Under the pieces are notes generated by a model. That model did not search any database. It had not been told where the DNA came from and was given only the letters and a program-made list of their open reading frames with translations. From a phage, in assembly GCA_004257845.1 (NCBI GenBank), contig GCA_004257845.1_4800.1: a stretch of DNA of 64,000 nt; one strand, written 5' to 3'. The translations under genes and the position numbers were made by a program. This document shows positions 12,311 to 64,000 of the stretch, in pieces. Position 1 is the stretch's first letter. Each line of letters opens with the position of its first letter.

Positions 12311-12311
12311 T

Positions 12312-12797: not shown

Positions 12798-12809
12798 GAG
12801 GACACCGAC

Positions 12810-14348: not shown

Positions 14349-14395
14349 ATAATTGCCGCCGTAAATGGCGGCCATCTCTCTGAGAGGAATCTGTA

Positions 14396-15811: not shown

Positions 15812-15813
15812 AC

Positions 15814-17404: not shown

Positions 17405-17405
17405 A

Positions 17406-17822
17406 ATGAAGATCACCAACAAACAAACTGGTCGTACAGTAGAAATTAAAATCAGCAAAATGACTGCGATGGAAGGCTGGAATATTCAGCGTCGATTCGT
17501 AGAATTTGCAATGTCGAAAGACCCTGCTTTTCGTTCAGAGTATACGATGGAAGTGTTGGGCTTTGCAAAAGTCGAGCTTGACGTGGGACAAGAAATCCCA
17601 TTAAGCACTGGTGCACTAATTGACAACCATCTTGGTGACTGGGAAAACCTTAAAGAAGTATTTGAAGCAGTTCTCATGGAGAACGGTATAAACCCAGACA
17701 CCCACGCCGAGCGTGAAGGCTACTGGGAACAAGCTGGCGGCGAAATGGCTGCAGCATTCATCGGCGAATCGATGCGATTAATCGCGCCATTCCTCAGCGG
17801 CGAGACTCCAAACAAGGGGTAA
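17406..17822 (+). CDS. hypothetical protein (tail assembly chaperone candidate)
   Basis: Position immediately upstream of tape measure. Confidence 0.3.
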   Translation: MKITNKQTGRTVEIKISKMTAMEGWNIQRRFVEFAMSKDPAFRSEYTMEVLGFAKVELDVGQEIPLSTGALIDNHLGDWENLKEVFEAVLMENGINPDTHAEREGYWEQAGGEMAAAFIGESMRLIAPFLSGETPNKG

Positions 17823-17825
17823 ACT

Positions 17826-20006: not shown

Positions 20007-20010
20007 TAAT

Positions 20011-20883: not shown

Positions 20884-20885
20884 AT

Positions 20886-21407
20886 ATGAGAAAGAATAAA
20901 GTAATTGATCTGTTTGGAGTCACTTATGAAATACATCAATTCAGCGCAATAGATGCGTTTGAAATGGTTGATGCGATAAGCATATTAACTCCACTTGAAT
21001 TATTAAGTGAATGTCATGTTATCAAATATGACGGAACTAAAGTCAGGTTAAACTCTGAGAAGGCAATAAGTGAAGAAGTGAAAAGTGTGCCAAATCATTT
21101 GCCGCCCAACCTTGTATTGAAAGTTCTAATGGAAGCGGTAAAGAAGCACAATTTTGGATTCCTCAGCGATTGGAAAGGTACTAAGATTCCAAATAGATTC
21201 TTGGCTGACGTTCCGACCGTAGAGCCTAATTATCTTGAGCCGATGGTTGCAAGCCTAATAAACAATGGTCTTGCTTCGTTAAAAGAATTGGAAGAATATT
21301 ATTCATTGCGTGATGCATTCGCTATGTTTGATGGACTAATAGCAAAATCACTTAATGAAGCCTACTCAAACGAAGCTGCCATTAAAGAATCAAAGTCAAA
21401 TCGCTAA
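20886..21407 (+). CDS. hypothetical baseplate protein
   Basis: ORF in baseplate module. Confidence 0.35.
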   Translation: MRKNKVIDLFGVTYEIHQFSAIDAFEMVDAISILTPLELLSECHVIKYDGTKVRLNSEKAISEEVKSVPNHLPPNLVLKVLMEAVKKHNFGFLSDWKGTKIPNRFLADVPTVEPNYLEPMVASLINNGLASLKELEEYYSLRDAFAMFDGLIAKSLNEAYSNEAAIKESKSNR

Positions 21408-21464
21408 AATATTGCTTATAGACTCCTTATAGATTATAATTTGTTGATCAGATATAAGGAGTCT

Positions 21465-22193
21465 ATGATGGCAGAAAAGTTAACCCAACTTACAAGCCCC
21501 AACCAAACTGACAAATCAAGTATGTTTGCCGCGCTGCAGGGAATGCTGGACCGTGGCAAGTATACCACTGACGGCATGATTCCTGCACAAGTAATATCTT
21601 ATGACCGCAAACAGAATTTAGCAGTCATAAAGCCTGTTATTCATTTCGTAAGTCTTGATGATAAACCAGTGGAGCGTCAACCTTTGGTGTCAATTCCTGT
21701 ATTGGCAATCGGCGGCGGCGGCTTCGTAATCAACTTTCCTCTGAAAGAGGGTGATTTGGGCTGGATATTCGCTGGCGACCGCGAGTTGTCGACATTCCTT
21801 GAAGAATTGAAGCCGACCGCGCCTACCAATGGCCGTGCGAAAACTTTCGCTGATGGACTGTTCATACCGGATGTATTTCGAAAATACACCATAAGCGGAG
21901 AGGATGCAGGCTCAATGGTAATCCAGTCACTCAGCGGAGATGTCCGCATCGCATTAAGTGATGACTCGATAAACATAACTGCATCGGCTGGAGTAAATGT
22001 GAAAACACCAATAACCACTATCGACCAACAATTGATAGTTAATGGAAAGGCAACGTTCAATGGTGGTATAGAAGGGAAAGAAGGAACGACGGCAACGCTT
22101 CCGACTGGCACAACAATCGGCGGCACAAATGTATCCACTCACGGTCACATAGGTAACGGACCTGGAAACAGAACTGGGGATATGATAGAATGA
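21465..22193 (+). CDS. putative baseplate spike/hub (gpV-like)
   Basis: Position before baseplate J-like gene; RBS AAGGAG before ATG 21465. Confidence 0.35.
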   Translation: MMAEKLTQLTSPNQTDKSSMFAALQGMLDRGKYTTDGMIPAQVISYDRKQNLAVIKPVIHFVSLDDKPVERQPLVSIPVLAIGGGGFVINFPLKEGDLGWIFAGDRELSTFLEELKPTAPTNGRAKTFADGLFIPDVFRKYTISGEDAGSMVIQSLSGDVRIALSDDSINITASAGVNVKTPITTIDQQLIVNGKATFNGGIEGKEGTTATLPTGTTIGGTNVSTHGHIGNGPGNRTGDMIE

Positions 22194-23461
22194 GTGCACA
22201 ATATTCTTACATAGTAAGCACTGGTGTAATAACCATCGACACAGCCGATTTGCTGGCTGACGTTCAAAGTGAATGGATTGAGTCATTAGGGGTCGGGCTT
22301 GACGTTGATGCATCGACACCGCAAGGCACCCTAATCGCGACAGAGACTTTGGCAAGAACTTCAGTCATGAAGAACAACGCCGAGCTGGGAAGTCTCATCA
22401 ACCCTAATTATTCATATGGCGTATACCTTGATGCCATCGCGGCATTGCTTGGGATTGAGCGAACTAAAAACATCAGCACGATGCTAAAAGGAATTACCGC
22501 AGAAGGAACGCCGCTGTTGGAAATTCCTGCTGGAAGTTTGCTGACGGATTCAAACGGCACATACTGGTATGTTCTTGAAGACGTTCAAATCACTTCGACT
22601 GGCAAGACAAGCAACATGACTCTTGCATCAAAAGATTATGGCTCATTTACGGTTGCCCCTGATGAAGAGTTTACCGTGGTGCAAGGTTATGACGTCATCG
22701 GATGGTCAAGAACGTATTCAACATCAGCAACGACGACCGTACCAGGTACGCAATACATGGGCGACGGAGCGTTAAAGGCCGCTCGCGTTAAGCGCCTTTA
22801 CCAGCAGGGAATTGCATCGCTTGGTGCTATTCGCGCTCGCGCCATGTCGGTCGACGGCGTGGAATCGGTGATGGTAGTGGAGAATGACACGGGATTGCCT
22901 GGAACGGTGCGCGGCATCACCTTTTCAACGCCTAACGGTGTCTGGGTGTGCGCAAGCGGAACGTTCGATAAGCAAGTTTTTGCTGAGACTATTTTCAAGG
23001 CAAAGATGGGCGGCCAGCCGTGGGACTTTGGTGCTGCCAACCAGGGTGATCCAGTCAACTCGCCTGATGGAATAGAAGTTGTCGACGAAGAATCGCAACT
23101 GTCTTATTTCGTAAAGTTCAACACTGCTGTCATATATGACTTGTATGTCGATATTACTGTTGTAAGAGGCACCGCAACCGCCGATGCCGAATCTATTATT
23201 GCCGCTGTGTTGAATTACGGTAATGGAAATTTTAACGGCGAGCAAGGATATGCAGTGGGCCAATCTCAATCTTCTTTTGAGATTGCTTCAGCAGTGTCTT
23301 GCGAGTATCCAGGCTTGTATATTAAAGATTGCAAAATTGCAGCAGTTAAAAGCGGACAGGCAGCGCCAAATTATCCATCCGATTACGGCAGCGAGTGGAT
23401 TGCCAATCCTTGGGATAAGGCGAATACTATGCGCGGCTTCATCAACGTTAAATTTGTGTGA
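22190..23461 (+). CDS. baseplate J-like protein
   Basis: 423 aa; N-terminal region reminiscent of baseplate J family; ATGA overlap with upstream gene. Confidence 0.45.
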   Translation: MSAQYSYIVSTGVITIDTADLLADVQSEWIESLGVGLDVDASTPQGTLIATETLARTSVMKNNAELGSLINPNYSYGVYLDAIAALLGIERTKNISTMLKGITAEGTPLLEIPAGSLLTDSNGTYWYVLEDVQITSTGKTSNMTLASKDYGSFTVAPDEEFTVVQGYDVIGWSRTYSTSATTTVPGTQYMGDGALKAARVKRLYQQGIASLGAIRARAMSVDGVESVMVVENDTGLPGTVRGITFSTPNGVWVCASGTFDKQVFAETIFKAKMGGQPWDFGAANQGDPVNSPDGIEVVDEESQLSYFVKFNTAVIYDLYVDITVVRGTATADAESIIAAVLNYGNGNFNGEQGYAVGQSQSSFEIASAVSCEYPGLYIKDCKIAAVKSGQAAPNYPSDYGSEWIANPWDKANTMRGFINVKFV

Positions 23462-23467
23462 GGAACT

Positions 23468-26206
23468 ATGCAAAAGTTTGACACAAACCTGTTGCAAAAC
23501 CTTAAGTGGATGCAGAACAATGCACCAAACATTACATCTTTGGTGCAAAAGAAAAGTGACTGGTATGAAAGATACCAAGATCAGTTTTGGACTGACTGGT
23601 ACAATAACATTTTTAACATTGACACTTGTGATGCAATGGGCATTTATATTTGGTGCGACATTCTTTGCATACCAAGAGACTTTGTGGACTTAAGCAATTA
23701 TGAGCACAACTGGGCGTTTGGACCGACGCGCGACAACTTTGAAGGTGCGGACAACATCGGCGGCAACTTCTTTGGTGCTGGCGGGAAGGTTGTAAAGAAT
23801 ATCGAAGAAGCGCGCATACTTCTTAAGCTTCGTTATCTGACGCTTACAAGTGATGGCCGCATCGAAAGTATCAACCGCATGCTTAAGTGGATTTTTAACC
23901 GTGGAGAGGCTTGGGATTACTCTTCATCACGCTACGCATATGTGACCGACAATACTCAAGGTGCGGTGTCTTCATCTGAATCAACAAATGGCTCATTCCT
24001 TCTGTACGACTGGCAAGGGTCAACTGAGATTCAGCATGATTATAAGCAGATACTTTTAAGCCATGGCAACAATGCCGGGCTGACCATCAGCGGAGTGTCA
24101 GGCACCGTGTCACGGATGGCGCACCCAGATTGGTACTCATGGGGAAATGGTTCCGGCACAGGGCTTGTCGGCGGCGACACCAGACAGTATGGTGGGCCTG
24201 ATTACTATGGGCAGTTGTGTGGTGATTACCCAGGCGAGGCCATAGAGAATTTTGCCAACGCAGTAAGGGTCATCAAGACGGCTTCAAGCGGTGAGCCTGT
24301 GTATTCTTTGGCCAATAATCCAAGTGCCAAATCAATTTCGCTTCCTTCGCAGGCTGGCGTCAACGTTTGCTATAGCTTCTACATAAAGGTGCTTTCTGAA
24401 AATGTCGCTTCTGTTTCTGTTACAGAGAATAGTGATGCATCGAGTAATGGAAAGCTGTTTGACCCCGTCACTGGACAGTTCAACTTAGACTCGTCCTTGA
24501 GTTATTTCATCACAGGCAAGTTTGATGGGGTGAGAAGGGAATCAAGCCGTGGTGGCATAAAAGCAATCGGCGGCGATTGGTATCGAATCTGGATTGTAGA
24601 GCAGACGGCAACCGATGCTTCTGGAGTAAGTACCAGCTTTTCAATAGAGTTGAAGGCAACTGCCGCTGGATCAACTCAAACTCGTGAATTGCCTGAAGGG
24701 TCTGACGCTCTTTTGTTTGGATACTCGATTTGCGTCTGCGACCCTGTTCAGAATCCAAATGGACCTGAGCCTTATTTTTATGGAACGCAAAACCCTCCTT
24801 CTGACGGAACAGCAATCCTGTCTGTAACGGCGGGAACGCTCAATAACATCTCCTGTGCAAACGGACCGCTGACGACAAGAAACGGTGTAGTTGGCGAGTC
24901 ATTCATGCAACCTGGCTCATCACTTGCATACTCTGGCTCAATCGGCGGCTACCCGTACCCAGGGAACGCCACGCTGATTGCAGAGACTGATGGAATCAGA
25001 CGCTCATGGAACGTTAGCAGGCTGGATGGAGCACCGCCGCCGCCGACCGCCGACTATTACATGGAATACGTCATCGGACCTTATTTCGCCAACAACCTGT
25101 CTGACAACTTTAAGACGCTAGTTGGCGACAGGAATGAAGGATTCTTGCCAGCAAATGCCGGAATACGCTGGCAGCTTTACCAAGAAGTCGCAGACTTATC
25201 TGATATTGATTTGACTGTCAGCGACATAACGGACACGCGAGTAGGATTTGAAACGGAAGGTGTTGCGTGGATTAACACTGATGGCATCATCAGAGTTGGC
25301 GGCATTAACGAGTGGCCACTGAACAACTTCAACGGTGTGATACGCCAACTTGAATCTTTGAAAGGTGTTAACCAAGTCGTCGATGGCGCTTTTGTCAACG
25401 ACTATTCAATCTCCAAGGCTTCTCGCGATGACTTTGGCCGTGAAATACCGCGCGCAGCCATCACAAACTATTGGCGATATACTCAGCCTAATGATGGAAC
25501 TTCATTTGGCAATATCATTGAGGATGGCGCAAACACTGTCACAGCGACGCCAATCAGCGGTGTGCCCAACCAGTTCCCATCATTCAAGCTTTCCGCTACA
25601 ATAGGGACTGTGCCAGCATCCGGTTATGCACGCGCTGTACTTGCTACTAAATACACTGGCACCCTGACTGGCCCTTTGTCATTTATCGCAATAGTCAAAA
25701 ACAACACGGTTAACGGTCAAAAACTTTTTGTAACTGTACCGGATGGGATGGGTGGCTATATCCCTAAATTCTACAACATAGGCGCAGGTGATTTGCAACG
25801 TATCGAAATTGACCTTGCCGCTGAGATTGTTGAAGGCGCTACCTGGGATGGATCAACAGGCGGCATCAGCATCGGTTTGATATCAGGGAAAGACTTGCCG
25901 ACCGAAGTTGGTACGACTCTTGAACTTGATATTTTAAGCTTGATGCTTGTGTCTGGTAATACGATGAATGCGCTTGCAATTTCAACAAGCGAAGATTTCG
26001 CAAAGAAAACTGCGACTTCTATATACATCAAAAACCCAGGATCACTTGCCACTGGAGTTCAATTGATTGCTTCTAATGGTGATGTTGTAGCAACAGTAAA
26101 CTTTCCGAGAAGTGCTGCTGGTGGTTATGTTTCAAGCATGAACATAACTGACTTAACTGGTGATTGGGCATCAACCCTTTTATCAAAAATTAAATACATC
26201 GTGTAG
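23468..26206 (+). CDS. large tail fiber / baseplate wedge protein
   Basis: 912 aa after baseplate J; Gly/Ser/Thr-rich distal half. Confidence 0.4.
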   Translation: MQKFDTNLLQNLKWMQNNAPNITSLVQKKSDWYERYQDQFWTDWYNNIFNIDTCDAMGIYIWCDILCIPRDFVDLSNYEHNWAFGPTRDNFEGADNIGGNFFGAGGKVVKNIEEARILLKLRYLTLTSDGRIESINRMLKWIFNRGEAWDYSSSRYAYVTDNTQGAVSSSESTNGSFLLYDWQGSTEIQHDYKQILLSHGNNAGLTISGVSGTVSRMAHPDWYSWGNGSGTGLVGGDTRQYGGPDYYGQLCGDYPGEAIENFANAVRVIKTASSGEPVYSLANNPSAKSISLPSQAGVNVCYSFYIKVLSENVASVSVTENSDASSNGKLFDPVTGQFNLDSSLSYFITGKFDGVRRESSRGGIKAIGGDWYRIWIVEQTATDASGVSTSFSIELKATAAGSTQTRELPEGSDALLFGYSICVCDPVQNPNGPEPYFYGTQNPPSDGTAILSVTAGTLNNISCANGPLTTRNGVVGESFMQPGSSLAYSGSIGGYPYPGNATLIAETDGIRRSWNVSRLDGAPPPPTADYYMEYVIGPYFANNLSDNFKTLVGDRNEGFLPANAGIRWQLYQEVADLSDIDLTVSDITDTRVGFETEGVAWINTDGIIRVGGINEWPLNNFNGVIRQLESLKGVNQVVDGAFVNDYSISKASRDDFGREIPRAAITNYWRYTQPNDGTSFGNIIEDGANTVTATPISGVPNQFPSFKLSATIGTVPASGYARAVLATKYTGTLTGPLSFIAIVKNNTVNGQKLFVTVPDGMGGYIPKFYNIGAGDLQRIEIDLAAEIVEGATWDGSTGGISIGLISGKDLPTEVGTTLELDILSLMLVSGNTMNALAISTSEDFAKKTATSIYIKNPGSLATGVQLIASNGDVVATVNFPRSAAGGYVSSMNITDLTGDWASTLLSKIKYIV

Positions 26207-26216
26207 AGGAACGGCA

Positions 26217-28004
26217 ATGCCAACACTTATTAACAGACCTTTCGCGCAAAGCGGTGATGTATCCGTGGTGCCGGATGCAAGTCCAAGCGGTTATGTGAAC
26301 TTCCAGCGCGGCTACACCCCTGACTATGCACTTGCCCTGGAAGCCGGAAACGTCGCCGCGAAAGCGGTTGAACGTGAGTCGATGAACTGGTTGCTGAATC
26401 TGATCACCGACAACCTTATGTTCATCCAGGACCACGGCGCTCAACAGTATTTCTCGTCTGACTTGAAGCCAGACGGATACCCGAAAAATGCCATCGTTGT
26501 CAGCAACTCTGGCACCCCTTCAGCGCCTGAATGGCGCATTTTCCAGAGTGCGGTAGACGGCAACACCAGCGCAGTCCCAGCTAACGGCGAAACGGAATCT
26601 TGGCAGGAATTGACGCTGCCTAGCGAAGCGAGAAAATATATTCCTATGCCTGCTGGCGGCGATGCGCAAAACCCGTATTTTGTTCGCGGACTGATTTCAA
26701 ACTTTGTGGACTTTGATAATATCACGACTTCCACAACTATTGTCATTCAATCTGATGCCGTTGCCGCTCTCTGCTCTAACATCCCGAACGCGGTTGGTGC
26801 GACGAAGGTTGCAGGCCGTCTCCAGGTTTGCGCTTGGCAGGTTAATGCGCAGACTTTCGCCCTGCAACAATACACGTCAATGAACGGATATGTTTTCACC
26901 CGCTCTTATACTTCTGGTGCTTGGAGTGCCTGGATTCAAAATGCTACTGTTCAAGACGTGCAAATTGGAACGCCGAATCTTGCATCAGGTAAAGGCGCAC
27001 AAGATATAATCCTTACCGTTCCAGCAGGTTATTCATGGCCTCCGTCAGCAGGTAGTCGCCTGACCATCGTTAATGATGTCACGACCACCGGACCTGTCAC
27101 CGTGACCATTGGTGCAAACAAAGTTGCAGTCCTTGGATTCGACGGCGGCGAGCTGCCAGCAGGGTCCATCGTCGGTCTTCTTCCTTTTACTATTATTTAT
27201 GACGGCACCGTTTGGCGTCTTCTTCAAGCGTTCGGCGCGGCGCAAATCGGTGTCGATGCTAGTGAGCCGCAACAGTTTGTTACAAAGCGCCAACTCGATG
27301 CTTTGGCCGCGAAGTTGATCACTATGGGTGATGTGTTCGAAGTCGGTGAGACTCGATTCTTGACTAATGGCACCAACCCAAATACTAAACTGGGCGCTTA
27401 CGGTCAGGTATGGACCAGGTTGCCTGATAACATGGTCATCAGGACGTCTGGCACGGCAAGAAACGGTCTTGACACTGGAGGTGCAGACTCTGTTACTCTT
27501 ACCGCCGCCATGCTTCCTCTGCACAATCACAGCGTGAACATAACTACGCGACAGAGTGGTCCATGGTCCAATACCACTGGAGACGCAGGCAACCATAACC
27601 ACACAGGCGATACCAGTCAAAACGGTGCTCACGTGCACGGAATGGATTCAGCAGGCAACCACCACCATGACAGTAGCTGGGGTGAATCAAATACGACTGA
27701 TGCGCGGTATGGCGTGTATGATGGGACGCACAACAACTTCGGAAGTCGAAAGGGTGGCGACTGGGACAACTATAAATACAACACCTCAACTAACGGCAAC
27801 CACGTTCACAATATTCAATCTTCTGGGTCACACACTCATGGGTTGAATATAAATTACGCTGGCAATCACAGCCATGGATATACCCTCCCAGCTCACACTC
27901 ACGATGTGGTCGGTAACACTGGCGATGCAGGGCAGGCCGTCCCAACGGCTGTTTCAACTCTGCCGCGATATGTCGTCTTGAACGGCTGGTACAGAAGCGC
28001 ATAA
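26217..28004 (+). CDS. tail fiber protein with C-terminal His-x-His repeat tip
   Basis: Repeated HNH, HVH, HHH, HTH, HSH motifs in the last ~130 aa, as in metal-binding tail fiber tips; start ATG 26217. Confidence 0.55.
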   Translation: MPTLINRPFAQSGDVSVVPDASPSGYVNFQRGYTPDYALALEAGNVAAKAVERESMNWLLNLITDNLMFIQDHGAQQYFSSDLKPDGYPKNAIVVSNSGTPSAPEWRIFQSAVDGNTSAVPANGETESWQELTLPSEARKYIPMPAGGDAQNPYFVRGLISNFVDFDNITTSTTIVIQSDAVAALCSNIPNAVGATKVAGRLQVCAWQVNAQTFALQQYTSMNGYVFTRSYTSGAWSAWIQNATVQDVQIGTPNLASGKGAQDIILTVPAGYSWPPSAGSRLTIVNDVTTTGPVTVTIGANKVAVLGFDGGELPAGSIVGLLPFTIIYDGTVWRLLQAFGAAQIGVDASEPQQFVTKRQLDALAAKLITMGDVFEVGETRFLTNGTNPNTKLGAYGQVWTRLPDNMVIRTSGTARNGLDTGGADSVTLTAAMLPLHNHSVNITTRQSGPWSNTTGDAGNHNHTGDTSQNGAHVHGMDSAGNHHHDSSWGESNTTDARYGVYDGTHNNFGSRKGGDWDNYKYNTSTNGNHVHNIQSSGSHTHGLNINYAGNHSHGYTLPAHTHDVVGNTGDAGQAVPTAVSTLPRYVVLNGWYRSA

Positions 28005-28012
28005 GGTGATTT

Positions 28013-28657
28013 ATGATTAATGCAAACGTAATATCTAAAGGGACCGGATGCAGCATGGATGTTGCTGAAAAATGGGTCGACCCCTTCAAGCAGGCTTGTG
28101 AGCACTACGGAATCAAAAGCAAGAATGCCATCGCGGCGCTGCTTGCAAACGTAGGAGTGGAAACAGGCAGCCTGAAGACCTTTGTGGAAAACCTGAATTA
28201 TTCCGCTCAAGGTCTTGCTAATACGTGGCCTAGCCGTTACAGCGCCAGCGGTCGTTTCGGTGGCGCACCAAACTCCTTGGCATTGTCGATTGCCCGTAAA
28301 CCAATGGAAATCGCCAATAATACATATGCAAACCGAATGGGAAATGGTTCGGTAGCATCTGGCGACGGTTGGAAGTACCGTGGCCGTGGTGCCATTCAGC
28401 TGACTGGAAAGGCTAACTATGCAGAGTATTCAAAGCAATCAGGGTATGACGCATTGAATAACCCTGACATTTTGACTGAGCCGAAATACATCGCTGACAG
28501 CGCGGCGTGGTTCTTCAAGAACAGCGGTTGCATTCCACTTGCCGATGCGGGTGCATTTGATTCGACCGTGAAGCGGATTAACGGGGCCGCGCCGAATACG
28601 GCTAACCATGGGGATTTGCGACGGAAGCGTTACAAGGATGCACTAGCAGTTATGTAA
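28013..28657 (+). CDS. endolysin, glycoside hydrolase family 19 (chitinase-like)
   Basis: GH19 motifs AALLANVGVETG and YRGRGAIQLTGKANY. Confidence 0.7.
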   Translation: MINANVISKGTGCSMDVAEKWVDPFKQACEHYGIKSKNAIAALLANVGVETGSLKTFVENLNYSAQGLANTWPSRYSASGRFGGAPNSLALSIARKPMEIANNTYANRMGNGSVASGDGWKYRGRGAIQLTGKANYAEYSKQSGYDALNNPDILTEPKYIADSAAWFFKNSGCIPLADAGAFDSTVKRINGAAPNTANHGDLRRKRYKDALAVM

Positions 28658-28660
28658 GAA

Positions 28661-28680
28661 AAAGGCCCATATGGGCCTTT
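28661..28680. terminator. bidirectional intrinsic terminator
   Basis: Perfect 20-bp palindrome AAAGGCCCATATGGGCCTTT flanked by A-run and T-run, between convergent genes. Confidence 0.6.
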
Positions 28681-28682
28681 GT

Positions 28683-28913
28683 TTATTTTACGGCTTCAAC
28701 CTGGACGGGCGGCGCGGAACTTGTATCAATGTCTGGCAAGTCGAAGTAATACCCCGCCATGCCAATCACGCCAACAATCGCGGCCCGTGCCACCTTGTTG
28801 CTAATTGACTCCCCAATAAGCTTTACCAACAGGGACAAGATTTGAGACGTCAAAGCCTTTTTCAGCCTTTTGTTTTCTTCCAAATCTTTCTGCATAACTA
28901 CCACCCATGTCAA
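28683..28913 (-). CDS. small membrane protein (76 aa; holin candidate)
   Basis: Single hydrophobic segment AAIVGVIGMAGYYF; ATGA overlap with upstream gene. Confidence 0.4.
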   Translation of the reverse strand: MTWVVVMQKDLEENKRLKKALTSQILSLLVKLIGESISNKVARAAIVGVIGMAGYYFDLPDIDTSSAPPVQVEAVK

Positions 28914-29452
28914 CGCACATCCTGTGTCTTAACATTACCTGAAGCATCTCTTAAGGGCAGTGGATAGTAGGCCATTTGGTAGTCTGATACGCCTTCAACA
29001 TGATAAAACACGATTACGTCTTTGCTGTTGATGAGCATGTTAACGACATCTGATTTATCTTCTGGAGTGAGTATGAGTGCGCCGCCTGTCCTGCTGTCTA
29101 CTGCAACAGGGTATGTCTTGTCGACAAGGCCGCTGTCCAATGTATTATACCTGACAACGATTTCAGCGGCATCAACTTTTGCAATTGACATTCCGAACAC
29201 AAACGAAACGACTTGGCGACCGCGATCATTCATTACGCACATCTTTTCCTTATCAAACCTTTCCTTTATCACATCATATTTGTTCCAGCAAAATTCGAAC
29301 GATTGGCCGTTGTTAAAATATCTCGTTAACACTTTGGCATTACTATTTGGCGGCGTAAACATACTTTCAGCCGCTGCACTTTTGGTGAAGAACAAGACTG
29401 TCAGCATAGCCATGATGGTGATCAAAACAATCTTTAAAGTTTTCGATTTCAT
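28910..29452 (-). CDS. secreted/periplasmic protein (180 aa) with N-terminal signal peptide
   Basis: Signal-peptide-like MKSKTLKIVLITIMAMLTVLFFTKSAAA; own promoter TTTACT-16-TATACT and RBS AAAAGGTGA. Confidence 0.5.
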   Translation of the reverse strand: MKSKTLKIVLITIMAMLTVLFFTKSAAAESMFTPPNSNAKVLTRYFNNGQSFEFCWNKYDVIKERFDKEKMCVMNDRGRQVVSFVFGMSIAKVDAAEIVVRYNTLDSGLVDKTYPVAVDSRTGGALILTPEDKSDVVNMLINSKDVIVFYHVEGVSDYQMAYYPLPLRDASGNVKTQDVR

Positions 29453-29537
29453 TATAATTCACCTTTTGATTACGAATATTAATAGTATAGGCCGAAGGTT
29501 TTGAAAGTAAATAAGGCGAAAGGTAAATAAAAGAAAA

Positions 29538-29553
29538 GCCGGAGATTTCCGGC
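29538..29553. terminator. intrinsic terminator hairpin (functional mainly on minus strand, after ligase gene)
   Basis: GCCGGAGATTTCCGGC flanked by A-run and T-run. Confidence 0.5.
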
Positions 29554-29628
29554 TTTATGTATACACTGTATATTAAATTCTATAAAACGACGCGATAGAT
29601 TATCCGCACCAATTATTTATCTAGTGTC

Positions 29629-30591
29629 TTAAAAATACTCCATATCGGTAATATCACGGAAGCATTTATACAAAGCAGAGCGCGGCACGTCGACGATGCC
29701 AAAGTTAAAGAATTTATACGTTAGGTATTTATCGCGATAGTTCTCGCGATTCTCCCAAAGCATTTTACGCTCTGCCATAGGCATTGAACCAGCGGAGACG
29801 CGGAAAGGAATCATTTCACCTTTCTCATCCACATATTTTGGATTGACGACTACGAATGAGCCAAGGTATCCTTTCGCAACTAAACCTTCAGCCTCTTTTG
29901 AACGCTTGGTGCGACCCAATTCGTCAATGAATGCTTCGTTGTTGTTCTCCATCATCTCAACGAAGTCTATGATCAACCCTTCTTCATCGGTCCACGGCTT
30001 GTCCTTCCACACATCACGTGACTTCGGCGTCGCGCGGCCATGCTTATATTTGCCCGTCCAAGACTTGCCATACAAGCCTTCATATCCAAGCTGGTCTGCT
30101 TCGATTTGCATCGCCGCGTACTGTTCCATATTTTCGATGTTTCGATATTCGAGAGCGCGAAGGAATGGGCGTCGACCATGGTTGATGAGATGTTGATTAA
30201 CTTCAGCAACTCTAGCTCGATAGTTTGCATAACGCTTTTCAAAAGGCAGATCAGGGTCGCTGAAGTCATCAAACACCCACCATGTAAAGTTAGTGATTGC
30301 ATCAGTATTCATGCATGCAGTATAGGCCTGTTGCATGACGTTCTTATCATTTGGATTGCCGTCGATTAGCTCTCCATCAAGTCCGTGAATTAGTTCACCC
30401 AAAAAGAGGAACTCTTTTTTGATTTGAACGTTGCGCAACGGCATGCCGGAAGTGCCCATTGGCAAGTTGTCATACGCCATTGCACGTATGCCATCGACCT
30501 TGAATGACAGTCCGCAAGGCAGCGGCACGTCCTCGCCGCGCTCGATAATCTGCTTACGTTGGCAACCCTTCATTGGTTTTAATGCTGTCAT
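29629..30591 (-). CDS. ATP-dependent DNA ligase
   Basis: Nucleotidyltransferase motifs: KVDGIR (motif I), LDGELI (motif III), EGLYGK (motif IV), downstream Lys-rich motif V. Confidence 0.6.
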   Translation of the reverse strand: MTALKPMKGCQRKQIIERGEDVPLPCGLSFKVDGIRAMAYDNLPMGTSGMPLRNVQIKKEFLFLGELIHGLDGELIDGNPNDKNVMQQAYTACMNTDAITNFTWWVFDDFSDPDLPFEKRYANYRARVAEVNQHLINHGRRPFLRALEYRNIENMEQYAAMQIEADQLGYEGLYGKSWTGKYKHGRATPKSRDVWKDKPWTDEEGLIIDFVEMMENNNEAFIDELGRTKRSKEAEGLVAKGYLGSFVVVNPKYVDEKGEMIPFRVSAGSMPMAERKMLWENRENYRDKYLTYKFFNFGIVDVPRSALYKCFRDITDMEYF

Positions 30592-58840: not shown

Positions 58841-59060
58841 CCTGTGGAATGTGAGGCTTTATTATCGGATAAAGCGATTGATTTGTGTAAATCTATTAGA
58901 GGGTCGTGGGTAGTAAGGATTGTGACGTGAATTTTGTGTCTTGAATATGTGTGCGAATTTGGAAGAATATTGTACTGTGGTGCTGTGGGATTGGAGAGGG
59001 AATCACTAGGAATTGGAGCGTGTACCGTGGTGTGTGGTCCTGTAGGCTGCGCCGTATATG
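58841..59060 (+). other. G/T-skewed non-coding segment rich in GGA motifs (candidate structured or sponge-type RNA)
   Basis: No ORF; strong G+T excess on plus strand; about ten GGA triplets, five within GGGATTGGAGAGGGAATCACTAGGAATTGGAGCG. Confidence 0.3.
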
Positions 59061-59123
59061 GGATTGTCGCTTGAAACTAAAAAGGAGATATAGTTAGCTG
59101 GCTAACCTTACGCATAGAATTTA

Positions 59124-59410
59124 AGCGTATAATGACGTAAGATTTGGACCTATCCGTAGTTCACTCCACACACTTCTATGGTGCGCCGCGACTGGGTTCA
59201 GTGGTACATCTTACGGATGATACGGATGATACGCGTCGCCGCTATACTTTATACAACTTTGAAAAAACAATTAACTCCATTTTGAATTAATTTAAATTAA
59301 TTTTTTTCTACATCCTCATACTTATACTAAACTTATATTTATACGTATTATCCGTAAGATATAAGTAAAAACAAAGACTTGCGGCAATACGGATGATACG
59401 TCATGATACG
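59124..59410. repeat. iteron/inverted-repeat element B (second copy of element at 6719-6994)
   Basis: GCGTATAATGACGTA (59124-59138); CTTACGGATGATACGGATGATACGCGTCGCCGC (59210-59242); AT-rich core; inverted TTATCCGTAAG and ACGGATGATACGTCATGATACG. Confidence 0.7.
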
Positions 59411-59522
59411 CTTCGACCAGCCAGCAGCGGCTAAGTCATTGATTTGCATAACAAGCGGCGAAAGGGATGGATTTCTTTTATACGTATCAAACAGTACACC
59501 ACGCACCACGGTCCGCAATCCT

Positions 59523-60822
59523 ATTTGCACTATGATTTGTGTACGTTTATAGCCATAATGAACATCAATCTGCACTTGAATATAATGTCCATCCATTGTA
59601 TAATTCACACTATTAATTTGCACTATGGGATTTTGCACTATGAGTCAAGATTATGTAGCGATGCCTGAAGACTTTGAAGACCCGCGATTCGCAGAGCACA
59701 ATCAGGCTTTATTCGATGAGTTCATTGACCTTGTTATTCAGGGCCATGACATGCGCGCAGCTTTTGCACTAGTATTTGGAATGGAAGTTGCAACGGATAA
59801 CTACACTGGCCAGCGAATCCTTTGCGCACAACGCAATCCGTACTACAAAATGCGCTTCAAAAAGCGTATGGAAGAGATGCCACTCAAGGATTTGTGGAGC
59901 GTAAAAGGTGCAATTCACAATTTGGTCAAGCTTGTGCGTGATCCAGAAGTCGCGGCGTCAGCCAAGCTTAATGCTATTCGTGAACTGAATATCATCTACG
60001 GCATCACGATGATTGATGAAAACGGCAATAGTAAAATGGGCCGTTCCATGGACGATTTCTACAAGGATTTTGGAGAGGCAGCCAAAGAAGGTGAGCAATT
60101 CTCCCGCCACTAGCCAATTTGCACTATAAAACGGCCCTAGAACACATTTTCTCCACTTCTAGGGCCATCGGTAATACGACGGGGAAGGTTACAACCGTAA
60201 ACGCGTTAGAAAGTGTATTATTATAAGTCATCTTTTAGTCACTTTACGTAACAATTTACGACCTTCAACCGTCCAATCGAACGACTCCACCAGCAGATTT
60301 GCACTATAACCTAAGACGATGCGCCCTTTCTCGTTATCGACCCGCCAACAAGTCTCGAATAGCATTCGATTTGCACTATTAACTATTGCCGCAACTCGCG
60401 TAGGATAAGCGCAATTTGCACTATGGTCGTAAAGGGATAAGGTGCGACCACTTCCGATGGACAACGTAGCGATGAGAATGAGTGTATTCATAAGCCACCA
60501 ATTTGCACTATGAAAAGCGACCCCGAAGGGCCGCCATTCGATTAGATAATCTGGAAGGTGTAGGACTTGTTGCCGAACTCGAAGTTTAAGCGTCCAGCTT
60601 CCTTAAGCTTCATGCGGAAGCGAATGTGCTTGCTATCCGGTAAGCCCAGCGCGGCGAACGCTACGCGGACCGATTTGAACTCGCCTACACCCTCGACCAT
60701 GACACCGTTACGGGTAAGACGCTTTTGCGCCACTTCCTTATTATCCCAACTTTTTGCAATACCTTCGCTATTCGAACGGCGATGGGATGGAGTTCCATTT
60801 TGCACTACGCAATTTGCACTAT
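59523..60822 (+). promoter_or_regulatory. array of at least nine copies of the motif (A/T)ATTTGCACTAT, all in one orientation
   Basis: Copies read at about 59524, 59616, 59631, 60113, 60297, 60368, 60413, 60500, 60796 and 60808; variant AATTTGCAGTACACT at about 63205 and 63297. Confidence 0.55.
59640..60113 (+). CDS. hypothetical protein (157 aa; small-terminase or regulator candidate)
   Basis: ORF preceded by iteron element B and by two motif copies overlapping its start codons; helical, acidic N-terminus. Confidence 0.4.
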   Translation: MSQDYVAMPEDFEDPRFAEHNQALFDEFIDLVIQGHDMRAAFALVFGMEVATDNYTGQRILCAQRNPYYKMRFKKRMEEMPLKDLWSVKGAIHNLVKLVRDPEVAASAKLNAIRELNIIYGITMIDENGNSKMGRSMDDFYKDFGEAAKEGEQFSRH

Positions 60823-61168
60823 CGTTTAAACCGCTCTTAACGAAGGCTTCATACTCTTCGTCGGTCATCGCGTCGAGTTCTTCCTGGGTCGGCTCGGACT
60901 TTTTAACGACCGCACGCGCCTTATGCGTTTTTACATCGTTGGGCACTTCCTCGCGCGACTTCGCGTCTGGGATGGGCGACTCGTTGGACGGCTCATCGAG
61001 CGCGTTTAAGGACTCGATTAACGCTATTACGCGAGTCTCGGCGGTCCGGCGGTCCGCAAATTTTTTGATCGGCTTCGAACCGGAATTTGCATTATAAAAT
61101 GCAACGAGGTCGGCGGTCTTAGTTGCGATAACGTCGCCGCTAGTCGAGAAACGATTTAAGCTAACCAT
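60542..61168 (-). CDS. hypothetical protein (208 aa) in atypical-codon-usage island
   Basis: ORF with CpG-rich, C-ending codon usage distinct from the rest of the window. Confidence 0.4.
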   Translation of the reverse strand: MVSLNRFSTSGDVIATKTADLVAFYNANSGSKPIKKFADRRTAETRVIALIESLNALDEPSNESPIPDAKSREEVPNDVKTHKARAVVKKSEPTQEELDAMTDEEYEAFVKSGLNDSANCVVQNGTPSHRRSNSEGIAKSWDNKEVAQKRLTRNGVMVEGVGEFKSVRVAFAALGLPDSKHIRFRMKLKEAGRLNFEFGNKSYTFQII

Positions 61169-61248
61169 AATGAACTCCTATTTGTTAGGGCGCTAGGCGC
61201 GAAAGAATTTTATTAAAGCGCCGCGCACGACGCTCTAAAAATCCTCTC

Positions 61249-61533
61249 TTACGCTTCGACGAGGGAGAAGGTCTCAAATTCTTCTTCGCCCATAACGAGT
61301 AAGATGTTACCGATTTCGACCGCTTCGAAGAAGTATCCGTTAACGTTTACTTCGAAGGCTTCGCGGTCCGATTCCGGTAACGCCGCGTAAAGTTTAAAAG
61401 CCTCGGCGACCGTAACCCCACCCGCCTCGATAGTTTGGTCTACGTTCGCGGCGTAGACTTCGGATAAAATTTGTTTTACGCCGTAGTTCTCGACGATAGC
61501 GTTACGGATAGAAGAAACGTTAAGAATAGCCAT
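61249..61533 (-). CDS. small protein, paralog family member A
   Basis: Paralog of 62167-62457 product; preceded on minus strand by conserved promoter and 5'UTR hairpin with RBS AGGAG. Confidence 0.5.
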   Translation of the reverse strand: MAILNVSSIRNAIVENYGVKQILSEVYAANVDQTIEAGGVTVAEAFKLYAALPESDREAFEVNVNGYFFEAVEIGNILLVMGEEEFETFSLVEA

Positions 61534-61612
61534 TTTAAACTCCTAGTTGGGAGAGGCGTTAACGACCTATTCGTTAACTCATCCCGTCCCGATATGAGTA
61601 CATTATAATATA
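61534..61612 (-). promoter_or_regulatory. conserved promoter plus structured 5'UTR, copy A
   Basis: Minus-strand reading: GTGCTTTACT-16-TATAAT, TATCGGGACGGG, hairpin GTTAACGA-ATAGG-TCGTTAAC, CCAACTAGGAG RBS. Confidence 0.5.
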
Positions 61613-61644
61613 GTGTAGAAAAAAGTAAAGCACTTTTTCGATAA

Positions 61645-61673
61645 AGATGAGATAAATTATTTTATCTTTTTTC
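61645..61673 (+). terminator. AT-rich hairpin with T-run between divergent promoters
   Basis: AGATAAATTATTTTATCTTTTTT; weak stem. Confidence 0.25.
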
Positions 61674-61757
61674 TTTACTTCTTCGTACACTCGCGTATAC
61701 TTGTTTATATCGAGACGGGCGATGACCCTTTCTTTTACTACCATCGGGAGTTTTATT
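61674..61757 (+). promoter_or_regulatory. promoter (TTTACT-16-TATACT) and 5'UTR for 61758 gene
   Basis: Shares GTGCTTTACTTCTTCGTACACT and TTTATATCGAGACGGG with the other two copies. Confidence 0.45.
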
Positions 61758-62060
61758 ATGGCTACTTTAATTTCTTCTCTTCTTACTTACGACGAAGACC
61801 GCTTAACCGTCGCTTCTCTTCTTAAAGCCGTTAACGCAGAATTAGACGGGACCGCTATTAAGGTCCGCGCGTTCGCCTTCGTCGGCCTTTCCTTCGACGA
61901 TATGAAGTACGTCGAACGTAGCGCCATCCGCTTCGCGAAGACCGACGACGAAGCCGTTACCCTTATCGAAACCGTAACGCCGCGCGGCGAAGCGCTAATT
62001 ATCGTCGAGTATCTCGATATAGAAGGCTATAAAGCTTATAAACATTTTATCGCAAAATAA
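61758..62060 (+). CDS. hypothetical small protein (100 aa)
   Basis: RBS GGGAG; Leu codons almost exclusively CTT/TTA, unlike the rest of the window. Confidence 0.45.
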   Translation: MATLISSLLTYDEDRLTVASLLKAVNAELDGTAIKVRAFAFVGLSFDDMKYVERSAIRFAKTDDEAVTLIETVTPRGEALIIVEYLDIEGYKAYKHFIAK

Positions 62061-62070
62061 CGAAAAGTGC

Positions 62071-62166
62071 TTTACTTCTTCGTACACTAAGACTATAATG
62101 TTTTATATCGAGAGGGGATGAGGTAGCGAATAGGTCGCTACCCGCCCGACCAACTAGGAGATTATT
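62071..62166 (+). promoter_or_regulatory. conserved promoter plus structured 5'UTR, copy B
   Basis: TTTACT (62071-62076) -17- TATAAT (62094-62099); TATATCGAGAGGGG; hairpin GGTAGCGA-ATAGG-TCGCTACC (62122-62142); CCAACTAGGAG RBS. Confidence 0.55.
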
Positions 62167-62457
62167 ATGATTACTTTAGCCGCTATCCGTTCCGCTCGCG
62201 TCGAGACTTCCGAAAACTCTAACGTATTTGGCGAAACCTTAGAGAGCGTTTATCTCTCTAACGTAGACGCAACTATCGAATCTATTTATGAGCCGATCAA
62301 CTTCCTCGACCTTTACAAGTATCGCGATGAGGACATCGTATCTTGCCGCGTAACCATCAACGGCTTCGTCTATACGATTACCGAAATCGGCGGCGAATAT
62401 CTCGCGGTCCCGCAACTCGGCGGCGAAGTAACTTTCTTTAAAATCGTAAGCCTGTAA
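62167..62457 (+). CDS. small protein, paralog family member B
   Basis: Alignable with 61249-61533 product (SxYxxNVDxTIE ... VxxNGxxxxxxEIG). Confidence 0.5.
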   Translation: MITLAAIRSARVETSENSNVFGETLESVYLSNVDATIESIYEPINFLDLYKYRDEDIVSCRVTINGFVYTITEIGGEYLAVPQLGGEVTFFKIVSL

Positions 62458-62468
62458 GGAGAAGGAAG

Positions 62469-62678
62469 ATGACTAATATGAATAATTCTCTTAACGCGCG
62501 CGCCCATCGTACCGCCGTAATCGATATGTTCCGCGAGCTTAAGGAATTATGCGATAATATGAACGCGATGTTATCCATCGGCGGCTGGGGATACGAAGAA
62601 GAGGTTAAATACGCGGTTATGCGTCGCCGTCGCGATAACGTCCTTGGGCAAATTAAACGCGCCGGATTATTCCTTTAA
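62469..62678 (+). CDS. hypothetical small protein (69 aa)
   Basis: RBS GGAGAAGGA; followed by terminator. Confidence 0.4.
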   Translation: MTNMNNSLNARAHRTAVIDMFRELKELCDNMNAMLSIGGWGYEEEVKYAVMRRRRDNVLGQIKRAGLFL

Positions 62679-62704
62679 TTATAATTACCAACAGTTACTA
62701 ATAG

Positions 62705-62722
62705 GCCGCGCTTAGTCGCGGC
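62705..62722 (+). terminator. intrinsic terminator
   Basis: GCCGCGCTTAGTCGCGGC followed by TTTTCTTC. Confidence 0.55.
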
Positions 62723-62739
62723 TTTTCTTCGCCCCTATC

Positions 62740-63380
62740 TCGATGCGCTTCTCCGCGAAAACTCCTTTATCCTTCCCTTCGTCGTCGCATAATCTTCGTC
62801 GAGATGCTCCTTAGTTCGTATAACGGGTATTACGTTAAATGGAGAACATCGCGTAAGTCCTTGTTTTATATAGACACCTATATCGGACCGTTAGGGCGGG
62901 TCGCGTAAGTCGTTGTTTTATAAAGGCGCAAAACTTTCCCTTCGTTCCGAACTAAAACGAGGAATATGCCGACCCTTCGTCCGAAAATAGTACGCATGCG
63001 AAATTACATGCATCTCGAATAATTCCCACCGATATTATCCTACAAGCAATCATTCTCTTTCGAATCATTATGCTTCATATTATTATGCGTCGAATCATTC
63101 GCTTTCGAATTGTAACGCTGGAAACTGTAACGGCGATTGATTATTGCGTTCGTGTGGTTTTTAGGGCATGGGTCTTTTGGTGCGTTTTGGTACTTGATGA
63201 AATTTGCAGTACACTAATCAAAATACGACACATTTGGTCCACTAACTTTTCAAAGAAAAAGTCCTGGACAGTACCGTACTATTTTGTACCCACAGGAAAT
63301 TTGCAGTACACTCCTGCGCGCCAGGCAAAATAAAGGGCCGCACTAAGCGACCCACGATTCACGGTTAAGGCAACATCCAC
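62740..63380. repeat. repeat-rich non-coding region
   Basis: Direct repeats CGCGTAAGTC(C/G)TTGTTTTATA (about 62853 and 62903), TCGAATCATT x3, TGTAACG x2, AAATTTGCAGTACACT x2; no convincing ORF. Confidence 0.5.
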
Positions 63381-63382
63381 CC

Positions 63383-63784
63383 ACTATTCACTCTTATGGG
63401 CATCACCAAAGCCATCCGCAATCTGGCTGATCAACGACTCAATGGACACAGTCTTACCAATTGATCGAGCGGTTATGGCGAGCATATTATCAATCAAACC
63501 GTGATTAACACAACACTCTGGAGATTTAGAGTCATCTTCAGAACAACCAAAAAGCTGGTCGCGCAGACTTTCAAGAGAACGCTCAATATTTTCCAACTTC
63601 TCTTCTAAATCGGATTGGCGACGTAAAACCCATGTCAAGTCACGGTTGCCAACTTCCAATCCATCAGAATAGCAAGGTGGAGCGTCAATTTTGATACTGG
63701 AGCCAAAAGCGGTGCCGCTGCCTTTAGTATATGTGTGGCTCATAGAATCATTTTTATTTGACATATCATTACCTTTAATATTTG
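63383..63784 (-). CDS. hypothetical protein
   Basis: Minus-strand ORF; start placed at Met with RBS AAAGGTAA (ORF extends to 63830). Confidence 0.4.
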
Positions 63785-64000
63785 GGTGATTAACAATAAC
63801 TATAATAAAGCCGCATAGCGCGGCATTCAAATCGATTTATTAATTGTGACGATTGGATTCATCAATCGATACCAATTGTGCAGGGTCGCCGGATACCGTT
63901 GCGCCGATGATTCCCATCTGAGAGAAAAATTCTGAATAAACTTCTTTCCAGTACTTGCGCGCAGCTTTCTGGGCCTGCCCTTTGCGCTTGTAACTTTTTC

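Follow-up and report, generated by a model that had tools for sequence, protein, structure and literature searches.

The locus considered here raises the question of why some two kilobases close to one end of a phage genome should have lost most of a single dinucleotide, CA with its complement TG (CA/TG), and what sort of genes and signals are kept in such DNA. The DNA analysed, a stretch of 64,000 nucleotides from GenBank assembly GCA_004257845.1 (contig GCA_004257845.1_4800.1) that is called the window throughout, belongs to a Wifcevirus, an E. coli myophage, and the 2.6 kb around the finding is 90–96% identical to 29 Wifcevirus phages of E. coli and Shigella. A first-pass annotation had described positions 60540-62700 as an island of atypical codon usage and separate origin, in which small paralogous genes sit behind a shared promoter and leader with a hairpin. 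The reading favoured here, with a probability of about 0.5, is that the region is a pre-early gene cassette in the terminal repeat, comparable to the first-step-transfer (FST) region of phage T5, and that it is kept free of nuclease targets.

Loss of CA/TG from one end of the window

Measured against the other 59 kb of the window, positions 61000-63000 have ordinary mononucleotide frequencies (1.00 and 0.99 times background) and seven of the ten dinucleotide classes lie between 0.93 and 1.09 times background; CA/TG stands at 0.27 times, and CG and TA each at 1.89 times. Dinucleotide odds ratios calculated per kilobase are flat over the window except in 61001-63000, where CpG reaches 2.05–2.16 and TpA 1.17–1.29, and TpG/CpA falls to 0.27–0.37. 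The loss of CA/TG amounts to 0.106 of all dinucleotides and the combined gain of CG and TA to 0.095, a nearly exact offset, and CA/TG is thus replaced by its own two transition products with the G+C content unchanged. Every trinucleotide containing CA or TG is depleted, most strongly CAG/CTG (0.06 times background, 16-fold) and CAC/GTG (0.16 times, 6-fold). On the plus strand CA and TG are both low regardless of the orientation of the genes, as they also are in the non-coding DNA at 62700-63000. Genes are affected whatever the codon position, first, second or third, and the residues His, Gln, Cys and Trp occur 3–6 times less often than in genes elsewhere in the phage. A chance sample of unrelated viral contigs, about 1 Mb in all, contained no 1-kb segment with an observed/expected ratio (o/e) for CA/TG below 0.71, Wifcevirus contigs excepted, compared with 0.27–0.37 in the island.

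The atypical codon usage that first drew attention to the region is real, with CTG, TTG and TCA nearly absent, and it turns out to be an effect of the dinucleotide. Among leucine codons CTG makes up 3% and TTG 0%, against 20% and 22% elsewhere, and TCA is at 0% against 24%. Where a codon may end in either pyrimidine, C is chosen in 91% of cases before G and in 18% before A, compared with 46–61% in any context in background genes. Because the third-position choice is set by the first base of the next codon, selection must act on the DNA dinucleotide, and neither tRNA adaptation nor a foreign codon dialect accounts for it. As for extent, the island stood up to analysis and its core proved wider than had been proposed, running from ~60850 to 63000.

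Three candidate generalisations were set aside. CpG-rich patches at ~6700-7000 and ~29500-29800, tried as further islands, are ATCCGTATC repeat clusters or ordinary sequence and are not CA/TG-poor. A general avoidance of palindromes or restriction sites was rejected, as the island holds more 4-bp and 6-bp palindromes than the background. Avoidance of the sequence context of a DNA modification, derived from 5-hydroxymethyldeoxyuridine or similar, was dropped since the gene set of a deoxyuridine monophosphate hydroxymethylase and a 5-hydroxymethyluracil DNA kinase is not present; the thymidylate synthase is ThyX and the supposed kinase matches a PNKP phosphatase domain.

The island lies in the terminal repeat

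In the related phage Mansfield the homologous stretch falls inside a 3,673-bp direct terminal repeat (DTR) predicted by PhageTerm (1-3673), and transfer of these limits by blastn places the right physical terminus of the virion DNA at window position 63178. Since the island lies within the mapped DTR, it is not an ordinary internal locus and is DNA found at both ends of the virion chromosome. The features of the region are as follows.

59279..63178, unstranded: DTR, 3.9 kb, the Mansfield repeat mapped by blastn
60513..60536, minus strand: intrinsic terminator 3' of gene A, read from the sequence and annotated in phage WFC
60542..61168, minus strand: gene A, 208 amino acids, basic, two folded domains, purged in its 5' half alone; phrog_4730
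60850..63000, unstranded: CA/TG-purged island, with a weaker gradient leftwards to ~60100, ending ~180 bp before the DTR boundary
61249..61533, minus strand: gene B, 94 amino acids, pI (isoelectric point) 4.05, paralog of D
61758..62060, plus strand: gene C, 100 amino acids, pI 4.9, unrelated in sequence to B and D
62167..62457, plus strand: gene D, 96 amino acids, pI 4.2, paralog of B, in a family restricted to Wifcevirus
62469..62678, plus strand: gene E, 69 amino acids, basic, with RRRR; phrog_10377 'transcriptional regulator'; accessory
62704..62729, plus strand: intrinsic terminator 3' of the rightward operon, read from the sequence and annotated at the homologous place in Mansfield and WFC
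62730..63178, unstranded: non-coding, repeat-rich end of the DTR, CA/TG-poor to ~63000, the last ~180 bp of normal composition

The five small genes are served by three promoter cassettes, with B and then A transcribed leftwards and C, D and E rightwards. Gene content differs between relatives, and E is missing from many of them.

Selection on composition

The purged island was present in all ten of the Wifcevirus loci examined. When the island was compared with eight relatives, 16–33% of the substitutions involved CA/TG in either allele, where ~40% would be expected under neutrality. The proportion was 16–20% for the divergent WFC-group phages, and single comparisons gave 39 of 250 substitutions for WFC, 46 of 284 for CWP003 and 35 of 106 for Eco4M-7. 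In the flanks, 54–61% of substitutions involved CA/TG against ~49% expected. Transitions made up ~0.45–0.62 of the substitutions in the island and 0.59–0.68 in the flanks. The purge is kept by purifying selection, and substitutions avoid creating CA/TG.

Gene A allows the island to be compared with the same gene in other surroundings, as full-length homologs with 35–42% identity occur in Pseudomonas Pbunavirus, in Serratia Myosmarvirus and in other relatives. CA/TG is normal around the gene A ortholog of Pbunavirus PASA16 and at a second gene A locus, outside the island, of Serratia phage Spe5P4, and the gene A paralog inside that phage's own island is depleted.

The same island in Myosmarvirus

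The first 2.05 kb of the Spe5P4 record (Myosmarvirus) carry the same signature, with o/e of 0.13–0.28 for CA/TG, 1.8–2.5 for CpG and 1.1–1.7 for TpA, and a sharp return to normal composition at ~2100. Relative to the genome in which it sits, this island has CA/TG at 0.22 times, CG at 1.55 times and TA at 2.14 times, CAG/CTG and TCA/TGA are down ~8-fold, and third-position C is used in 94% of cases before G and in 10% before A. It opens with a CTTTACT-17-TATAAT promoter, and its coding sequences are an additional copy of gene A and those for three small, acidic proteins; between the islands of the two genera, A alone is detectably related. The two Spe5P4 copies of gene A offer a built-in comparison of what the purge does to a single protein family: the copy at 24-527 of record L140 (167 amino acids) lies in the island and is CA/TG-poor, and the copy at 5605-6639 of record L135 lies outside it and has normal composition.

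In phage MyoSmar the DTR spans 1-3559 and the island ~200-2050; in MTx, whose record is oppositely oriented, the DTR spans 1-3566 and the island ~1450-3400. In both genera, then, the purged block is inside the terminal repeat and ~180–200 bp from one physical terminus. No description of such a purge was found in the set of papers searched for dinucleotide bias in phage terminal repeats, and the removal of one dinucleotide from one terminal block, selected and kept across genera, looks like a new signature.

Restriction sites in the repeat

The phenotypes that bear on this signature come from the BASEL study, in which Wifcevirus phages resisted all tested restriction systems save EcoP1_I, no mechanism of genome protection being known for them. 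They were resistant to EcoCFT_II even though its sites are as numerous as those of EcoP1: the BASEL tables give, for Bas98 and Bas99 respectively, 36 and 38 EcoRI sites, 6 and 8 for EcoRV, 4 and 3 for EcoCFT_I, 93 and 92 for EcoCFT_II, and 82 and 89 for EcoP1. Bas98-100 plated at 0.3–2.4 on hosts with EcoRI, EcoRV, EcoCFT_I or EcoCFT_II and formed no plaques on the EcoP1 host. CACAG was confirmed as the EcoCFT_II site, as its counts, 92 in Bas99 and 93 in Bas98, agree with the BASEL table and no other 5-mer fits both.

The terminal repeats of the window and ten relatives hold no site for EcoRI, EcoRV or EcoCFT_I, 0–1 CACAG and 4–7 AGACC, the EcoP1 site, counting both strands. Type III enzymes need two inverted sites to cut, so a lone CACAG is safe from them. 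EcoP1, the sole effective system, is therefore the sole one with usable sites in the repeat, a relation that is correlative. For the rare sites, zero occurrences in 3.9 kb is what chance would give (0.2–1.0 expected); this is not so for CACAG (5.3 expected), whose absence from the repeat is a direct consequence of the purge. AGACC contains neither CA nor TG, so the purge cannot remove EcoP1 sites. As a separate observation, the repeat of the window has AGACC at 59678, 61796 and 61939 on the plus strand and at 61115, 61270, 61437 and 63171 on the minus strand, and five of these seven sites lie within the purged island, where 2.65 would be expected.

A comparable dependence on first-entering DNA is established for other phages. 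In T5 and BF23, type I and type II restriction acts only via sites in the FST DNA, that is, the terminal repeat, and CRISPR (clustered regularly interspaced short palindromic repeats) targeting of T5 likewise works only via that DNA. In Autographiviridae, restriction sensitivity is set by motifs in the leading, first-entering region, which is variable and encodes counter-defence functions. Since the sole effective system against Wifcevirus has the sole usable repeat sites, as in T5 and BF23, we infer that entry begins with the repeat, or with the purged end of it, and that products from there then shield the remaining genome.

Explanations for the purge

The explanation preferred here is that the island would be the first DNA to enter the cell and the first to be expressed, as is the FST DNA of T5 or the leading end of T7, and that this leading DNA would be kept free of target sites containing CA/TG. 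Sequence-directed nucleases would then be unable to cut it before its products could protect the remainder of the genome. The best supported attackers are host restriction enzymes, presumably those of type III with short sites and those of type I. Three of the four enterobacterial type III sites considered (CAGCAG, CACAG and CAGAG) carry CAG or CAC, the trinucleotides avoided most strongly in the island, and such short sites cannot be missing from 2 kb by chance. More narrowly, and at odds somewhat below even, the purge may be the specificity mark of a DNA-targeting agent of the first minute of infection, whether a widespread class of enterobacterial defence, such as type III systems of the CAG/CAC type, or the phage's own nuclease against host DNA.

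With either agent, a phage that rids its leading 2 kb of a dinucleotide would be using a distinct strategy of counter-defence, kept across phage genera, in a cassette controlled by a hairpin with the apex CGA-AUAGG-UCG that is described below. On the preferred explanation, the BASEL puzzle of sensitivity to EcoP1 alone, despite equally many EcoCFT_II sites, would receive a testable answer, namely that only sites in the terminal repeat count and that the repeat has lost its CA/TG-containing sites, and the FST principle would extend to a myovirus clade of interest for phage therapy. Were the agent the phage's own nuclease, there would be an answer at the level of sequence to how first-entering DNA of the T5 type survives the destruction of host DNA. 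The signature could also serve to locate leading ends and pre-early cassettes in uncharacterised phage genomes.

A number of observations weigh against this explanation. It depends on an order of DNA entry and a stepwise transfer that we infer. The restriction correlation consists of six systems, and for four of them zero sites in the repeat is also the chance expectation. BF23 and T5 resist EcoP1 despite having sites in their FST DNA, so the FST-site rule is not universal. Among the island proteins no recognisable anti-restriction or nuclease fold was found by Pfam, PHROG, PDB-sequence and structure searches. About 80 CA/TG are left in the island, and over the leftmost 1.5 kb of the repeat the purge is weak or lacking. 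What the purge gains overall in invisibility is modest: the island lacks 20% of 5-mers compared with 8% in background windows, and 53% of 6-mers compared with 43%. On a metagenomic contig with the same leader hairpin (IMG/VR 3300034198_002835, here L179), which stops 230 nt past the start codon, the downstream gene is TG-rich and not CA/TG-poor, so that hairpin and purge are separable. Finally, the idea that CA/TG is simply the cheapest dinucleotide to purge had to be abandoned, since removal of AG/CT costs no amino acid and that of CA/TG costs 11.7% of residues; given that another dinucleotide is cheaper to remove from coding sequence, something specific to CA/TG must matter.

Of the other explanations, the separate origin put forward by the first-pass annotation, with the island coming from a donor of different codon usage, could appeal to the lack of homologs of B, C and D outside Wifcevirus and to the variable gene content among relatives. 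It is nevertheless largely refuted: a single dinucleotide class deviates and the overall composition is that of the genome, codon choice depends on context, purifying selection is ongoing with substitutions that avoid CA/TG, and another genus bears the same signature on other genes. Gene A, in addition, has vertical orthologs (B, C and D being orphans), and a vertically inherited gene that is purged in its 5' half only, with orthologs that are undepleted, does not support acquisition from elsewhere. A mutational bias specific to the context, for example deamination at CA/TG associated with repeats or transcription, would explain why CG and TA, precisely the two transition products of CA/TG, have taken its place in a region that is a repeat and probably heavily transcribed; repeat-induced point mutation in fungi leaves a related signature of CA/TG changed to TA. 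This is quite improbable, because an unchanged G+C content would call for changes that balance both ways, the left part of the repeat has escaped, transitions are rarer in the island than in its flanks, the proteins are intact with their amino-acid content reshaped, and no process of this kind is known in any phage. Selection at the level of RNA, with UG and CA avoided in early mRNAs for escape from ribonucleases or for the tuning of translation, would fit the rough coincidence of the island with early transcription units. It is hardly credible, given that coding strands are short of CA and TG alike in genes of either orientation, that the apparently untranscribed 62730-63000 is depleted and that the transcribed 3' half of gene A is not.

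Two further proposals start from the position of the island and from the specificity of the loss. The 2 kb that is packaged last and ejected first might need some mechanical or protein-binding property, at the portal, tail channel or terminase, that CA/TG disturbs, and the similar distance of the island from the physical terminus in two genera, together with the purging of non-coding DNA as well as genes, would agree with this. Such a role is improbable: TA, the most flexible step, is enriched and not avoided, the outermost 180 bp are of normal composition, the terminal repeats of T5 and SPO1 carry no CA/TG purge, and a requirement of this kind is known for no phage. The remaining proposal is self-protection, in which a product of the island degrades host DNA at CA/TG sites, with CAG/CTG and CAC/GTG the most avoided, and early phage DNA is spared for want of them. 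A hypothesis of this type exists for T5, where Davison suggested that A1 is a restriction enzyme and that a pre-early nuclease destroys host DNA at sites missing from the first-entering phage DNA, and it addresses the survival of FST DNA during host DNA degradation. The loss of one dinucleotide, and not the cheapest, suits a single specific agent. In favour, too, are the 16-fold and 6-fold losses of CAG/CTG and CAC/GTG, the ~8-fold losses of CAG/CTG and TCA/TGA in Spe5P4, and the very fast lysis reported for Wifcevirus. Self-protection is nonetheless unlikely, as A-E yielded no nuclease domain, gene A is all that the two genera's islands have in common, the ~80 remaining CA/TG persist in the DNA to be protected, and host DNA degradation is unreported for these phages; on its own it would also leave the difference between EcoP1 and EcoCFT_II unexplained.

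Promoter cassettes and a leader hairpin

The genes of the island are preceded by three promoter cassettes that share TTTACT, a spacer of 16–17 nt, TATAAT or TATACT and a conserved start region, AUAUCGRGASGGG. Two of them, P_B and P_D, continue with GAUGAG, a hairpin, the Shine-Dalgarno (SD) sequence CUAGGAG and ATG.

61534..61637, minus strand: cassette P_B, with the -35 element TTTACT at 61629-61624, the -10 element TATAAT at 61607-61602, and repeats I1 and I3
61558..61578, minus strand: P_B hairpin, GTTAACGA-ATAGG-TCGTTAAC in DNA and GUUAACGA-AUAGG-UCGUUAAC in RNA
61666..61757, plus strand: cassette P_C, with TTTACT, a 16-nt spacer and TATACT (61674-61701), and the leader AUAUCGAGACGGG
62063..62166, plus strand: cassette P_D, with TTTACT, a 17-nt spacer and TATAAT (62071-62099), the hairpin and the SD CUAGGAG
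62122..62142, plus strand: P_D hairpin, GGTAGCGA-ATAGG-TCGCTACC in DNA and GGUAGCGA-AUAGG-UCGCUACC in RNA

By sequence scoring alone the three promoters are of the sigma-70 type and consensus-like, with 9–10 of 12 points. Transcription from P_B would start near 61595 (AUAUCGGGACGGG) and run through the hairpin and the SD to the ATG at 61533, and the P_D leader, AUAUCGAGAGGGG, begins at ~62105. P_C, with a predicted start near 61707, lacks the AUAGG hairpin, has a different small hairpin at its 5' end and drives gene C, which is unrelated to B and D. The shared promoter and leader module noticed at the outset thus exists, in three copies and not the two described, and its minus-strand copy reads CATATCGGGACGGG and not TATATCG. 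The cassettes are nearly invariant throughout Wifcevirus, and in some relatives that have no gene B (RCIP0319 and Eco4M-7) the same cassette is joined straight to gene A, which makes it a portable expression module that is not tied to the paralogs. A search of the IMG/VR database with a loose promoter pattern gave mostly chance matches.

The hairpins of P_B and P_D differ by compensatory changes at two pairs, and within Wifcevirus the four single-site variants are three G-U wobbles and one C-A mismatch. Spe5P4 has GUCGGGCGA-AUAGG-UCGCCCGGC 17 nt after TATAAT, with the same loop and CGA/UCG top and a new lower stem. A scan of IMG/VR with the pattern TATAAT-N(12-40)-CGAATAGGTCG returned 66 DNA stretches, among which the extended stem occurred solely in the Wifcevirus and Myosmarvirus lineages and in L179, the rest being stemless chance matches. 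L179 represents a third, metagenomic lineage, with GACUAAGCGA-AUAGG-UCGUUUAGUU in RNA; positions 6408-6470 of this contig read TATAAT, 15 nt, GACTAAGCGA-ATAGG-TCGTTTAGTT, an SD and ATG. Over the eight distinct hairpin sequences, 98.4% of cells pair and five of the eight pairs have changed on both sides; none of 500 shuffles reached the observed covariation, and sliding the partner columns lowered pairing to 17–50%. The loop and the top three pairs (CGA-AUAGG-UCG) are invariant across the three lineages. The proposal of a conserved, covarying structure is borne out by these figures and by its occurrence in other phages, namely Myosmarvirus and the metagenomic lineage.

RNA hairpins that proteins recognise have just such a constant apex above a covarying stem, a pattern that does not belong to a plain stabiliser or a DNA operator. 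To judge from this pattern, the hairpin is most likely recognised by a protein that regulates the cassette once transcription has begun, through translation, stability or read-through, and it is the invariant loop that favours recognition by protein; the first-pass annotation had suggested a translational operator. That the element stabilises the 5' end of the mRNA without specificity, or is a palindrome in the DNA to which a dimeric repressor binds, is a less probable interpretation that retains some weight: the element sits in the 5' leader of highly expressed genes, its folding energies are unremarkable (z-scores of -1.5 to -2.0), and the island is rich in palindromes by composition. Yet a plain stabiliser has no need of a fixed loop, whereas here loop and top three pairs are invariant in three lineages and the five lower pairs covary. 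A DNA operator, for its part, would conserve sequence and not pairing, and three of the four single-site variants are G-U wobbles, which pair solely in the sense-strand RNA. No relevant match to Rfam 15 was found in 59000-64000 at E ≤ 1, and the leader hairpin is a new conserved RNA element of which no earlier description was found.

Lambdoid nut sites (boxB), the put sites of HK022, the coat-protein sites of MS2 and PP7 and the T4 RegA sites all have a loop fixed for recognition by a protein and a stem that covaries. The element described here resembles nut/boxB, put and the phage translational operators in being a promoter-proximal leader hairpin with a fixed loop and a covarying stem. It differs from nut/boxB in the lack of a boxA-like partner, of an Rfam match and of a conserved arginine-rich N-like protein, E, the sole arginine-rich one, being missing from many relatives.

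Island proteins

B and D are indeed paralogs, as had been claimed for 61249-61533 and 62167-62457, with 28% identity over 81 amino acids and a pairwise E of 6e-6. An exhaustive profile search of 1.8 billion representative proteins found no member of their family outside Wifcevirus, and C has no homologs outside the genus either. The AlphaFold model of D is unreliable, with a mean pLDDT (predicted local distance difference test) score of 51. Gene A is conserved throughout the Pbunavirus-like phages (Wifcevirus, Myosmarvirus, Pbunavirus and others) and belongs to no Pfam family. In its model a disordered acidic linker connects two confidently folded domains; Foldseek returned no significant match to it, the weak winged-helix-like matches of the C-terminal domain having E values of at least 0.2. 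Pfam, PHROGs and PDB sequence searches gave no informative assignment of function for A-E, and homologs of the T5 proteins A1, A2 or dmp were not found among the island proteins with Pfam, PHROG or solved structures searched by sequence.

Related systems

The closest known system is the FST region of T5 and BF23, in which early genes with host-type promoters lie in a multi-kilobase direct terminal repeat, as the putative early genes of Wifcevirus do with their consensus-like promoters; the Myosmarvirus island too lies in such a repeat. The FST region and the Wifcevirus repeat both have a non-coding, repeat-rich segment at the repeat boundary. T5 and BF23 leave their DNA unmodified and yet withstand restriction as long as the repeat is free of sites, and the phenotypes and site counts of Wifcevirus follow that rule. 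The differences are that T5 is a siphovirus with a 10-kb repeat and Wifcevirus a myovirus with a 3.9-kb repeat that lacks A1, A2 and dmp homologs, that T5 transfers its DNA in two steps where stepwise entry of Wifcevirus DNA is presumed, and that T5-like phages are EcoP1-resistant even with FST sites, unlike the EcoP1-sensitive Wifcevirus. The composition of T5 FST DNA also differs, with raised CpG and normal CA/TG. In T5 (NC_005859) the o/e for CpG is 1.35–1.5 over the repeat at 1-10219 (1.06 at 6–8 kb) and 0.57–0.92 over 10220-30000, with a sharp step at the repeat boundary. This rise may be related to the purge in a weaker form, or codon usage may be all that lies behind it.

The leading region of T7-like Autographiviridae is similar in that motifs in the first-entering DNA set restriction sensitivity, but single motifs are lost there, whereas here a whole dinucleotide class is purged and there is no recognisable Ocr-like protein. 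The host-takeover module of SPO1 likewise gathers many small genes with strong early promoters and ribosome-binding sites in a terminal repeat, although that repeat shows no dinucleotide anomaly. Rusinov et al. 2018 are said to have described restriction-site avoidance in phage genomes, target sequences being lost under selection by restriction. Such avoidance concerns specific sites of 4–8 bp and is usually genome-wide, in contrast to the one dinucleotide in one 2-kb terminal block seen here, where palindromes are not avoided.

Repeated motifs at the ends of the repeat

The repeat also carries several families of short motifs. The motif (C)AATTTGCACTAT occurs nine times between 59523 and 61094, always on the plus strand, in the left and middle parts of the repeat and within gene A as well, and GAAATTTGCAGTACACT occurs twice just beyond the right repeat boundary, at 63199-63215 and 63296-63312. 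The 11 matches together compare with 0.8 expected, and the DnaA-box consensus TTWTNCACA is matched at seven of its nine positions. The (C)AATTTGCACTAT array could possibly serve in packaging, as sites for the small terminase, or in stopping injection, or could act as a phage-specific promoter. Two repeat-rich segments were noted as candidates for an injection stop, the ATTTGCACTAT array at 59523-61094 and the non-coding end at 62730-63178, which holds the further repeats D2, D5 and I6.

Around the left DTR boundary at 59279, ATACGGATGATACG / ATCCGTATC repeats are present in direct and inverted orientation at 59205-59233, 59341-59363 and 59387-59400. The same unit recurs at 6778-6993, around an AT-rich stretch of ~70 nt (6.8–6.9 kb) upstream of the head protease gene, and these repeats are candidate signals for terminase cleavage or for an origin of replication.

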